DNA from: Escherichia coli | GTDB lineage: Bacteria; Pseudomonadota; Gammaproteobacteria; Enterobacterales; Enterobacteriaceae | Strand: one strand, 5' to 3' | Length of the DNA stretch: 64,000 nt | Assembly: GCF_022846255.1 (NCBI RefSeq) | Contig: NZ_AP025682.1 | In this document: in pieces, positions 27,001 to 32,036 of the stretch | Numbering within the stretch: the stretch's first letter is position 1 | How the letters are laid out: every line of letters starts with the position of its first letter | Position numbers: made by a program

Positions 27001-30000
27001 GCCTGCTTATCGGGCCGAACTGATAGCCGAAAGCCTGTGGGAGTTTATTGACGAGGACCGCAGCGTGCAGACGCGTCTGGGGCGTGAAGACAGCGAGTAT
27101 CTCGCCCGCTCGGTGCCGTTCTACGCCGCTAATCAACCGCTGGCTGATATCAGCGAAATGCGCGTGGTACAGGGAATGGACGCCGGGCTTTATCAAAAAC
27201 TGAAACCGTTGGTCTGTGCGCTGCCGATGGCCCGCCAGCAAATCAACATCAATACATTAGATGTCACGCAAAGTGTGATTCTTGAGGCGCTGTTTGACCC
27301 GTGGTTAAGCCCTGTTCAGGCGCGGGCGTTATTACAACAACGTCCGGCGAAGGGCTGGGAAGATGTCGATCAGTTTCTTGCACAGCCGCTACTCGCAGAC
27401 GTCGATGAGCGTACTAAAAAACAGCTAAAAACCGTCCTGAGCGTGGACAGCAATTACTTCTGGCTGCGTTCAGATATCACCGTGAATGAGATTGAACTGA
27501 CGATGAACTCGTTAATTGTCCGCATGGGCCCACAACACTTTTCTGTTCTCTGGCATCAGACAGGAGAAAGTGAGTGAGTTCCATCCTTGAGATTTTTTTC
27601 CCGCTTTGCGCCTCCGACACCATCCGCTGGCAGCGCCGTACCGCCGACGTGGAGTGCGGCATCTGGCCTGACGTTGCTGACGAACGTCTCCAGCAATGGC
27701 TGCAAACTGATGCGATTCGACTCTACATTCCCGGCGAATGGATCAGCGTCTGGCAGGTTGAACTGCCTGATGTGCCCCGCAAGCAGATACCGACGATTCT
27801 GCCCGCCTTGCTGGAAGAAGAGCTGAACCAGGATATCGATGAACTGCATTTTGCCCCGTTGAAAATCGACCAGCAACTGGCAACCGTAGCTGTGATTCAC
27901 CAGCAGCATATGCGCAACATTGCGCAGTGGTTGCAGGCAAACGGCATCACCCGCGCTATCGTCGCGCCGGACTGGATGTCCATTCCTTGTGGGTTTATGG
28001 CTGGCGATGCGCAACGGGTTATCTGCCGCATCGATGAATGCCGGGGATGGAGCGCCGGGCGAACGCTGGCTCCGGTCATGTTCCGCGCACAGCTCAATGA
28101 GCAGGATTTACCGCTTTCACTAACCGTGGTCGGCATTGCACCGGAAGAACTGTCTGCATGGGCTGGTGCAGACGCCGAACGCCTGACCGTTACGGCTCTG
28201 CCCGCCATTACCACTTATGGCGAACCGGAAGGGAACCTGTTAACAGGGCCGTGGCAGCCTCGTGTCAGCTACCGAAAACAGTGGGCGCGCTGGCGGGTGA
28301 TGATTCTGCCGATATTGCTGATTCTGGTTGCGCTGGTAGTGGAACGGGGCGTGACGTTATGGAGCGTCAGCGAACAGGTGGCGCAAAGCCGCACCCAGGC
28401 GGAGAAACAGTTCTTAACGCTATTCCCGGAGCAGAAGCGGATTGTGAATTTACGCTCTCAGGTGACGATGGCGCTGAAAAAATATCGCCCACAGGCCGAC
28501 GATACCCGGCTGCTCGCCGAGTTGTCAGCGATAGCCAGCACCCTGAAATCAGCGTCACTTTCCGACATCGAAATGCGTGGTTTCACCTTTGATCAAAAAC
28601 GCCAGACGCTCCACCTTCAGTTGCGGGCAGCAAACTTTGCCAGTTTCGACAAACTGCGTAGCGCACTGGCGGCAGATTATGTTGTGCAACAGGACGCATT
28701 ACAGAAAGAGGGTGATGCGGTTTCCGGCGGCGTAACGTTGCGGAGGAAATAACATGTTACGCGATAAATTTATTCACTATTTTCAGCAATGGCGTGAACG
28801 CCAGTTAAGCCGTGGCGAACACTGGCTAGCACAGCACCTGGCGGGGCGTTCGCCGCGTGAAAAAGGCATGTTACTGGCAGCGGTGGTGTTCCTGTTTAGC
28901 GTCGGATATTACGTCCTCATCTGGCAGCCGTTGAGCGAACGGATAGAACAACAGGAGACGATGTTGCAACAGCTGGTGGCGATGAACGCGCGACTGAAGA
29001 GCGCCGCGCCGGATATAATTGCAGCGCGAAAATCCGCCACGACAACGCCAGCACAGGTATCGCGGGTCATCAGTGACAGCGCTTCCGCGCACTCAGTGGT
29101 CATCAAGCGGATAGCCGAGCGCGGGGAGAATATTCAGGTCTGGATAGATCCGGTGGTGTTTAATGACCTGCTGAACTGGTTAAACGCGCTGGATGAAAAG
29201 TATGCGCTGCGGGTGACACAAATTGATGTCAGCGCAGGTGAGAAGCCTGGGATGGTGAATGTGCAGCGGCTGGAGTTTGGACGGGGGTAGGTATTGCCAT
29301 TTCCTTAACCCCACCTGATAACCCTTAGCCCAAGGGTGAGTGCGGAACTGTCAAACCCGCTCACCGGGCTGAGTTCCGATGTAGCAAGATTTATCTCCCT
29401 CCAGAGCACCACGGAATGTTCGACAATACTGTAGGAATTCGTTTTTCACCATGTAGCCTTCGTTAATCTACACCTTTCTAAGACTGTAAAGATGCTTAAG
29501 TGTTTTGACACATTATGATTATTAATAGTTGTAATAAATCATTGAGTAACAATTGATAGGTCAAAACATATAGGATAATTCTTATGTGATCTGTATTTTG
29601 TGTAGCCTGGAAATTAGTAAAATTACTGGAGATAATCAGAAAGGGAATTTCAAATAAGCATAATAATTTCCAGGGAAACTATTCGTCGATTTTAAGAAAT
29701 GTCTGCTCAGGTATATCTACTGAGGGATGGTGTTGGTTGTAACGCTGGTTAAAATAAACACACAAAATAATCAGGATGTATATTTTAATCGACGAAAATA
29801 ATTACCTTCGGGATTATTGATGCGACTTAAATAACACCATTTAAACGTGATATAAATCACAAATATGGCTGTGAAGAGGGTGCTGTAGATATAAATAAGA
29901 AGTACATGAGTGAATTTTAAATAGGAAAATAGTTTCTCGCTAAACAATTTATTGGTAATCAATCGCATGCGTTCTGGTTTGAGACAGATTGCAGGTGTTG

Positions 30001-32036
30001 CTACGCATAAAATTCATAGGCGGTATTATAATCAAGTAGTTAACAGTAATAGTAAAAAATAATTTCTTGCGAAATTAGCGGCCCATTTTGAATAAGTGTG
30101 TTCCGGAGTAATCCAGAACGCATGCTGCTTTACGTCTTTTTCAAGCCATATTGGTTAAGCAAAAAGAGGTAGAAATAATTTCCTGAGAAATTAACTCTAC
30201 ATTCTGAAACGGCCAGTTTTCTGAAATTACCAGAAGACCGAATACATTCATGCCTGAAGAATGGATTAGAAGAAACGAGACGGAAATAGATCTATTTATC
30301 CCTGCGGAAATAATTTCTGATGAAATTGTTTTCGGCTATTAAAAAGGTCAAACCGGCTGAGTGAATTTTATCCAGTTACAAATAAGCATTACCTCCAGTG
30401 TATTGGTAGCTGTTAAGCCAAGGGCGGTAGCGTACCTGAAGAGATTAGGATCACATCATCAAATGGCAAGAAGTGGATTTGAAGTCCAGAAAGTCACCGT
30501 AGAGGCATTATTTCTACGAGAAATACGAACACGCTTTGGTAAGTTCCGTCTGGGATATTTGTGGGCGATTCTCGAACCCTCTGCGCATTTGCTGATACTG
30601 TTGGGCATTTTTGGTTACATTATGCACCGCACGATGCCAGACATCTCATTCCCGGTGTTTTTACTTAATGGCCTGATTCCCTTTTTTATCTTTAGCAGTA
30701 TCAGCAATCGTTCTGTAGGTGCTATTGAAGCGAATCAGGGGCTGTTTAATTATCGACCAGTAAAACCCATCGATACGATCATTGCGCGTGCATTGCTTGA
30801 GACACTGATTTACGTTGCTGTTTATATATTGCTTATGCTTATCGTCTGGATGGCAGGCGAATATTTCGAAATAACAAACTTTTTACAACTTGTGCTTACC
30901 TGGAGTTTGTTAATCATTCTTTCATGTGGCGTTGGCTTAATATTCATGGTCGTTGGTAAAACCTTCCCTGAAATGCAAAAGGTCCTGCCGATACTGCTTA
31001 AGCCGCTGTATTTCATCTCCTGCATCATGTTCCCTCTACACTCGATTCCGAAGCAATACTGGTCATATCTACTCTGGAACCCATTAGTGCATGTCGTAGA
31101 GTTAAGCCGCGAGGCAGTTATGCCTGGCTATATCAGCGAAGGCGTGAGTCTGAACTACCTTGCAATGTTCACTCTGGTCACCCTGTTCATCGGTCTGGCG
31201 TTATACCGAACGCGTGAAGAGGCAATGCTGACATCATGATTAAGATTGAGAATTTGACGAAGTCATATCGCACGCCAACGGGTCGACATTATGTCTTTAA
31301 GGATTTAAACATCGAAATCCCTTCAGGAAAAAGTGTCGCCTTTATTGGTCGTAATGGTGCGGGTAAATCAACGTTACTGAGAATGATTGGTGGCATTGAC
31401 CGCCCCGATAGCGGAAAGATCATCACCAATAAAACGATATCATGGCCAGTCGGCCTTGCAGGTGGATTTCAGGGAAGTTTAACCGGACGCGAAAATGTAA
31501 AATTTGTCGCGAGGTTATACGCGAAGCAAGAAGAACTGAAAGAGAAAATTGAGTTTGTTGAAGAATTTGCCGAACTCGGTAAGTACTTCGATATGCCGAT
31601 TAAGACTTACTCATCTGGTATGCGATCGCGTTTAGGCTTTGGTTTAAGCATGGCATTTAAGTTTGATTATTATATCGTCGATGAAGTAACCGCAGTCGGT
31701 GATGCCAGGTTTAAAGAAAAATGCGCTCAATTGTTTAAAGAAAGGCATAAAGAATCTAGCTTTTTAATGGTTTCACATAGTTTGAATTCATTGAAAGAGT
31801 TTTGTGATGTGGCCATTGTGTTTAAAGATGATAATGCAGTTAGTTTTCATGAGGATGTTCAGGAGGGGATAGAGGAGTATCGTGTAAAACAAACCTGCAA
31901 ATAACAATCATTTATGTAAGTTTGAAATAACTTCACATCATCTATTTCTAATAAGCATCCAGTATTAAATGTGTAAATTTTATTTATAGGGTGCAAGGAT
32001 AATGACGATTATTTTTAAAAAATATTCCGGAGCTGA

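Follow-up and report, generated by a model that had tools for sequence, protein, structure and literature searches.

The 64,000-nucleotide (nt) stretch of Escherichia coli contig NZ_AP025682.1 analyzed here (hereafter the window) contains a 1174-nt intergenic region between the end of yghD (29290) and the ATG of kpsM (30465). This is the region-3 leader of a group 2 capsule (kps) cluster: gspL and yghD stand upstream of it, and the genes for an ABC permease and an ATPase follow downstream. The group 2 capsule is a major virulence factor of extraintestinal pathogenic E. coli (ExPEC) and the region-3 leader is known to influence expression. Our subject is a 13-bp inverted repeat within this leader, for which an original prediction had suggested a long-range RNA stem – a possible attenuator or thermosensor-like structure upstream of the ops sequence. 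That the region is indeed the leader of kpsM follows from the position of the JUMPstart element and of the kpsM start codon. The features needed from the outset are these:

29965–29977, plus strand: 5′ arm of the inverted repeat, GCATGCGTTCTGG, which is also the 5′ half of a local hairpin (hairpin A, module 3).
30113–30125, plus strand: 3′ arm of the inverted repeat, CCAGAACGCATGC, which is also the 3′ half of a local hairpin (hairpin B, module 4).
30396–30434, plus strand: JUMPstart element with ops, the RfaH loading site (Rfam RF01707, 58.5 bits).
30465–31239, plus strand: kpsM, coding for an ABC transporter permease; its ATG is at 30465.

The two arms are perfect reverse complements over 13 bp and are separated by a gap of 135 nt. 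The repeat had been described in just this way, except that its 5′ arm was taken to begin one position earlier: C29964 faces T30126 and is unpaired. Toward the inside the complementarity extends to 16 nt (29965–29980 with 30110–30125) with one U-U mismatch (94% complementary). As proposed, the arms enclose one copy of a dyad motif (dyad 4, 30057–30078) and lie upstream of ops, 270–430 nt before JUMPstart/ops and without any sequence shared with it. A scan of 29300–30600 against Rfam, at E-values up to 1, returned JUMPstart and a chance snoRNA-like match only; none fell at the repeat.

The number of such repeats expected by chance was estimated from dinucleotide-preserving shuffles, loops being allowed up to 300 nt. 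Perfect 13-mer inverted repeats are expected 0.014 times in the 1174-nt leader, and 1% of shuffles contain any at all. For the whole window the expectation is 0.53 and two are observed. The repeat is unlikely by chance within this leader; as the best of the entire 64-kb window it is unremarkable. The second perfect 13-nt inverted repeat is unrelated to the first and is located at 35263/35286 (35263–35298), near the end of a 1117-amino acid open reading frame (ORF) of region 2. A perfect 12-nt inverted repeat is also found inside kpsM (30589–30600/30696–30707).

Both arms can matter as RNA only where both are transcribed. The published start of transcription from the promoter PR3 lies 741 bp before the start codon of kpsM, and the promoter has a −10 hexamer and no −35 (PMC8960920). 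Counted naively in this window, which carries a long allele of the leader (see below), 741 nt leads to a start at 29724, where the −10 is poor (TATATC); the published distance fits the short allele instead. In the short allele of UTI89, 742 nt lie between the position 7 nt past the end of the −10 hexamer TATTTT and the kpsM ATG, and the block that holds this hexamer, TGATCTGTATTTTGTGT (29594–29610 in the window), is invariant across all lineages. Because the published 741 nt fits the short allele, and because the K5 strain examined is also short, the start is placed at ∼29607. The leader of this window would then probably measure ∼858 nt.

29594–29607, plus strand: probable PR3 −10 hexamer TATTTT (29594–29599) and start (near 29607), obtained by applying the published 741 nt to the short allele.

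Either start position precedes 29964, so both arms are transcribed; a start downstream of 29977, which would have contradicted the proposed stem, is given by neither placement. A search for the IHF consensus as an anchor for the transcription start was uninformative.

The repeat is embedded in a larger and more regular structure. Six copies of the dyad AAATAATTTCnnnnGAAATT are distributed along the leader (at 29661, 29796, 29927, 30057, 30173 and 30308) with a spacing of 135, 131, 130, 116 and 135 nt. In the window the motif is matched 23 times where 3.0 matches are expected; all of the closest ones (zero or one mismatch) fall inside the kpsM leader. In each of modules 1–5 a second hairpin, more stable than the dyad hairpin, begins 37–43 nt past the dyad.

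29661–30327, plus strand: six-dyad array with a period of 116–135 nt; modules 1–5 each have a second hairpin.
29701–29728: second hairpin of module 1 (−8.7 kcal/mol, z −1.40).
29834–29872: second hairpin of module 2 (−8.7 kcal/mol, z −2.64).
29964–29997, plus strand: hairpin A, the second hairpin of module 3 (−12.7 kcal/mol, z −2.37), in which the 5′ arm pairs with 29985–29996.
30057–30078, plus strand: dyad copy 4, AAATAATTTCTTGCGAAATT, within the repeat; a weak A/U RNA hairpin (−3.6 kcal/mol).
30096–30123, plus strand: hairpin B, the second hairpin of module 4 (−13.7 kcal/mol, z −5.42).
30216–30238: second hairpin of module 5 (−8.1 kcal/mol, z −3.16).

From the regular spacing of the dyads, together with the fixed offset of the second hairpin, we propose a tandem array of modules in the kpsM leader. 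The two arms of the repeat belong to adjacent modules. In hairpin B the 3′ arm pairs with GUGUGUUCCGG, and no other piece of module 4 is as well conserved as this hairpin. In a MAFFT alignment of the modules the same columns hold GCGTTCTGG (module 3), GTGTTCCGG (module 4) and GTTTTCTGA (module 5), and at 56 nt past their own dyads module 4 reads CCAGAAC and module 5 CCAGAAG. The leader thus appears to be made up of five to six degenerate modules of ∼130 nt, whose paralogy we infer from these correspondences. A perfect 13-nt direct repeat, TGAGTGAATTTTA, is also present in the leader (29907–29919 and 30358–30370, 451 nt apart); it is consistent with paralogy of the modules, the tails of modules 2 and 6 scoring z 2.5.

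Secondary structure predictions depend on how much of the leader is folded. An isolated piece of 181 nt has a minimum free energy (MFE) structure that contains the long helix (−46.5 kcal/mol, z −2.56), and to this extent the arms are able to form the long-range stem. When the whole leader is folded, the MFE structure consists of two local hairpins, the 5′ arm pairing with 29985–29996 and the 3′ arm with 30096–30106. The predicted probability of the long helix in the whole leader is 0.19 at 37°C and 0.07 at 20°C, and the energy cost of forcing it is 0.2–0.4 kcal/mol at 37°C and 2.7 kcal/mol at 20°C. On these predictions the long helix would be an almost isoenergetic alternative to local hairpins A and B.

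The predictions also bear on the regulatory roles that had been suggested. Cooling from 37°C to 20°C lowers the occupancy predicted for the long helix, the opposite of what a repressing thermometer would show, and the arms, at 340–500 nt upstream of the ATG at 30465, have as predicted partners only each other or 29985–29996 and 30096–30106; they cannot mask the ribosome-binding site. A terminator scan of 29300–30500 found no terminator-like site of the kind in which a G+C-rich stem runs straight into a U tract. A U-rich tract at 30126–30141 (UGCUUUACGUCUUUUU; TGCTTTACGTCTTTTT), which adjoins the 3′ arm and hairpin B on their downstream side and is conserved in all long-form lineages, narrowly fails the scan; counted on the sequence, the tail after the 3′ arm, UGCUUUAC, has four U in its first 8 nt. 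The leader as a whole is poor in C (A 35.5%, U 29.5%, G 20.3%, C 14.7%).

Of greatest consequence for the long helix is natural variation in the number of modules. The following segment is present in the window and absent from a common short allele:

30059–30174, plus strand: module-4 segment, from dyad 4 to dyad 5, 116 bp.

The boundaries of this segment are ambiguous within the repeated AAATAATTTC, and it amounts to exactly one module, carrying hairpin B and the 3′ arm. Among 5426 complete E. coli genomes, in which the best full-length identity to the leader haplotype of this window (29450–30470) is 97.6%, so that the source strain or lineage is not among them, the leader is present in 1626 and the module-4 segment in only 418, a count that may be slightly too low for the most divergent lineage; ∼74% of leader carriers are without it. 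Loci from metagenomes divide into 23 long and 25 short. Among named strains, UTI89 (K1) has a 116-bp deletion, the deletion of Nissle 1917 (K5) is 106 bp long and leaves AAATAATTTC twice at the junction, and both strains are without hairpin B and the 3′ arm (short-allele loci: L002, L061:10008–11075 and L062:35185–36241). At least one sequence type 131 (ST131) genome carries the long allele. Divergent lineages keep module 4 – JKHS006/E69 at ∼88% identity and Esc4 at ∼78% – and for this reason we take the long form to be ancestral and the short form to be derived by deletion between the directly repeated dyads 4 and 5. The pairing partners of the long helix are therefore not jointly retained across homologous loci: most natural kps loci, among them those of a K1 and a K5 strain, have lost the 3′ arm through the unit deletion, and long-range pairing is dispensable.

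The Nissle 1917 assembly used here (L061; NZ_CP007799.1, 3427483–3429234) shows a peculiarity of its own. Its annotation has a kpsS-like coding sequence in overlap with kpsT and lists no kfi genes of region 2 between the two: either the assembly has collapsed here or the K5 biosynthesis region has really been deleted.

Thermoregulation of group 2 capsules, K1 and K5 among them, is described as acting at the level of transcription via H-NS, SlyA and BipA, and the long untranslated region (UTR) is reported to modulate how much PR3 transcription reaches region 3 (PMC8960920). Given that the K1 and K5 strains examined are without the 3′ arm, and that a UTR of the published 741 nt corresponds to the short allele, an essential role of the repeat as attenuator or thermosensor is unlikely. 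Such a function is further weakened by the result of the terminator scan, by a consensus fold that uses the local hairpins, by the distance of the arms from the AUG and by the direction of the predicted temperature effect.

Variation among long-form leaders was assessed in an alignment of 21 distinct variants of 29933–30143, drawn from E. coli genomes and 51 metagenome loci. Perfect pairing at all 13 positions proved to be haplotype-specific: position 29967 is G in 13 of the 21 variants, giving a G·U pair. Across the alignment 95.9% of cells in the long helix are paired. Five of its pairs vary, on one side only and always to G·U, and none of the 13 is changed on both sides. These values equal the shuffled means and were reached by 500 of 500 shuffles, so that they do not distinguish the helix from its shuffled control. 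The local hairpins have 99.3% of cells paired, likewise without double compensatory changes. The RNAalifold consensus of the 21 variants comprises hairpin A, the dyad-4 hairpin and hairpin B, and not the long helix (covariation term −0.69 kcal/mol); folding of the whole leader and of the 21 sequences jointly thus chooses the two local hairpins over the proposed long stem. No compensatory covariation for the long helix is present in the 21 variants. In one variant from the metagenomes, L047, the substitution A30115T puts a U-U mismatch into the long helix and falls on the bulge of hairpin B. Variable columns are distributed as follows:

5′ half of hairpin B: 1 of 11 columns variable.
3′ arm: 4 of 13.
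5′ arm: 4 of 13.
3′ half of hairpin A (29985–29996): 8 of 12.
Spacer between dyad 4 and hairpin B: 16 of 17.

Taken as a unit, hairpin B is clearly constrained, and the pattern of substitution fits RNA pairing over DNA symmetry. The variation data do not, as we read them, decisively separate local from long-range partners. A scan of genome contigs with a kps-specific JUMPstart 25-mer returned only Escherichia (E. coli E69, E. whittamii and Escherichia sp.); two of the three loci end before the repeat, and they yield no cross-genus covariation.

On balance we favor the view that paralogous hairpins in a modular, structured and C-poor leader gave rise to the repeat as a by-product, with the local hairpins as the relevant structures and the long helix as an optional conformer. 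Each module would combine an A/U-rich dyad with a more G+C-rich stem-loop ∼40 nt further on, and the arms would be complementary because they are the outer halves of paralogous, neighboring stem-loops: the 5′ half of that in module 3 and the 3′ half of that in module 4. During transcription each arm would most likely pair with its nearby partner first, and the 13-bp long helix would be an alternative conformer of about equal predicted stability, available to the long allele only. The hairpins probably act collectively, as parts of a structured untranslated leader that is reported to modulate how much PR3 transcription reaches ops and kpsM.

Several observations weigh against this view. The 5′ arm (4 of 13 columns variable) is better conserved than its local partner at 29985–29996 (8 of 12), and given this conservation its relevant partner could be the 3′ arm. 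The cross-module pairing in the window is Watson-Crick at 13 of 13 positions, whereas each local hairpin has 10 pairs, two of them G·U, with one or two bulges; simple decay of paralogues would not predict that pairing between modules should be better than pairing within them. All five internal substitutions in the long helix keep the pairing as G·U, and the energy gap between the conformers lies inside the error of the nearest-neighbor model. The paralogy of the modules is also open to challenge: outside the dyads the module tails are weakly homologous (modules 3 and 4, z 1.47; modules 4 and 5, z 1.30), the best score comes from the pair of modules 2 and 6 alone (z 2.5, p 0.027), and Tandem Repeats Finder reports no array in the leader, which we attribute to the divergence of the units.

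Some of these observations lend a certain appeal to an allele-specific RNA switch, in which exchange between the local hairpins and the long helix would tune transcription to ops and kpsM in long-allele strains – by way of RNA compaction, access of Rho or RNase, or pausing of RNA polymerase – and the module-4 deletion would remove this layer of control elsewhere. The two conformers are near isoenergetic at 37°C, the predicted occupancy shifts with temperature, G·U pairs keep the helix closed at all internal substitutions, the 5′ arm is conserved above its local partner, and the UTR reportedly modulates how much transcription arrives at region 3 (PMC8960920). We nonetheless regard such a switch as doubtful: compensatory double changes are absent and the consensus fold favors the local hairpins, neither conformer is coupled to a terminator or a ribosome-binding site, the L047 variant disrupts the long helix, and the 3′ arm is missing from about three-quarters of leader-carrying complete genomes as well as from the K1 and K5 strains checked. 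A stronger version, that the helix of modules 3 and 4 is a genuine switch setting read-through to ops and that the module-4 deletion (K1 UTI89, K5 Nissle and most sequenced ExPEC) is an adaptive regulatory allele affecting the level or control of the capsule, strikes us as improbable. Nor does it seem at all probable that hairpin B or the long helix, followed by UGCUUUACGUCUUUUU (30126–30141), forms a weak terminator or pause site that loss of module 4 would relieve. Hairpin B is stable and strongly conserved, and the T-rich tract is kept in all long-form lineages, but the site does not pass the terminator scan (the first 8 nt of the tract hold four T, not at least five), the stem has a weak base (G·U and U-A), and the reported effect of the UTR presumably comes from a K5 allele without module 4, given that 741 nt fits the short form and that Nissle 1917 is short.

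Explanations at the level of DNA fare worse. Large footprints of H-NS and SlyA are known at PR3, with a downstream site at +141 to +219 and a proposal of H-NS bridging (PMC8960920), and the arms are conserved as sequence; they might accordingly be opposed sites at which a regulator or nucleoid protein bridges or loops ∼150 bp of leader DNA. We hold this to be quite unlikely, as the published downstream H-NS footprint would map to ∼29748–29826, outside the arms, which are themselves G+C-rich and unlike typical H-NS sites; in addition, G·U-compatible substitutions are explained by pairing in RNA and not by symmetry of the DNA duplex, and one arm is dispensable in most strains. Chance complementarity without history or function could be argued from the expectation for the whole window and from the presence of the second, unrelated repeat in it, and is very unlikely in view of the rarity of such repeats in leader shuffles, the conservation of both arms across lineages differing by ∼22% overall and the equivalent offsets of the arms in adjacent modules. 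There is, finally, next to no prospect that the arms are the terminal inverted repeats of a non-autonomous mobile element of ∼161 bp, that is, a miniature inverted-repeat transposable element (MITE) or foldback element. Arms of 13–16 bp do flank a short A/T-rich segment; the module-4 segment is, however, single-copy (median one place per genome), no flanking direct repeat is visible, and the natural indel (30059–30174) differs from the bounds of the repeat (29965–30125). We rejected this identity on those three grounds.

Other features of the leader stand apart from the repeat. A 30-nt block, GAAGACCGAATACATTCATGCCTGAAGAAT (30233–30262), is near-invariant in every lineage examined, with single-base variants in a few genomes; JUMPstart excepted, it is conserved above the rest of the leader. 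An ATG at 30250 falls within this block and opens a plus-strand ORF of 30 codons, which was dismissed as a conserved leader peptide since it is interrupted by stops in the Esc4 and JKHS006 lineages. A minus-strand ORF (29771–29968, 65 amino acids) starts inside the 5′ arm and was likewise set aside, its ATG being lost by the common A29967G variant. The described interaction of RyhB with kpsM involves the final 150 nt of the UTR, close to ops, and not the inverted repeat (PMC11988350).

No new switch is revealed by this work. What emerges is a leader built of repeated two-hairpin modules with two common natural alleles that are one module apart, and this modular leader with its common deletion allele is more interesting than the repeat itself. 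Tests of leader function, or comparisons of capsules between lineages, need the allele to be known, the published 741 nt being a fit to the short one. If the alleles differ in expression, a virulence determinant would carry a cis-regulatory polymorphism that is both simple and frequent.

Comparison with known systems places the leader in context. Like the REP (repetitive extragenic palindromic)/BIME (bacterial interspersed mosaic element) and ERIC (enterobacterial repetitive intergenic consensus)/IRU (intergenic repeat unit) families, and like MITEs, it contains short imperfect palindromes in intergenic transcribed DNA. Unlike them, the segment is single-copy per genome and has no Rfam match, and its repeat units are specific to this leader. 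With trp-type attenuators and the Rho-dependent attenuators of mgtA and corA it shares an untranslated leader in which four segments have predicted alternative pairings (1:2 plus 3:4 against 1:4); it differs in having neither an intrinsic terminator nor a conserved leader peptide (other lineages interrupt the ORF at 30250), and neither of its conformers is tied to a terminator. C-poor RNA, such as this leader with its 14.7% C, is likely to be a poor substrate for Rho.

RNA thermometers (ROSE, fourU) and leaders that occlude the ribosome-binding site, such as that of rpoS, also act by base pairing in a 5′ UTR, and the operon here is a temperature-regulated virulence operon. Those elements sequester the Shine-Dalgarno sequence or the AUG, whereas the arms of this repeat pair with neither in any prediction, and the published thermoregulation of kps, unlike that by thermometers, acts at transcription (PMC8960920). 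JUMPstart/ops (RF01707) lies in the same leader and is itself a cis element, equipped with a small hairpin, that precedes a polysaccharide operon; the repeat differs from it in lying 270–430 nt further upstream, in sharing no sequence with it and in giving no RF01707 match.

In the accessible literature we found no description of the RNA structure of this leader, of its module architecture or of the module-4 indel. A close counterpart is the large 5′ UTR of PR3 in K5 strains (Stevens et al. 1997; Xue et al. 2009, summarized in PMC8960920), which is the same locus. The two agree in a far-upstream start, in being untranslated, in having ops just before kpsM and in a reported modulation of the transcription that reaches region 3 (PMC8960920). 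They differ in length: the published 741 nt fits a short allele without module 4 and the 3′ arm, whereas the leader of this window, with its additional module, probably extends over ∼858 nt.

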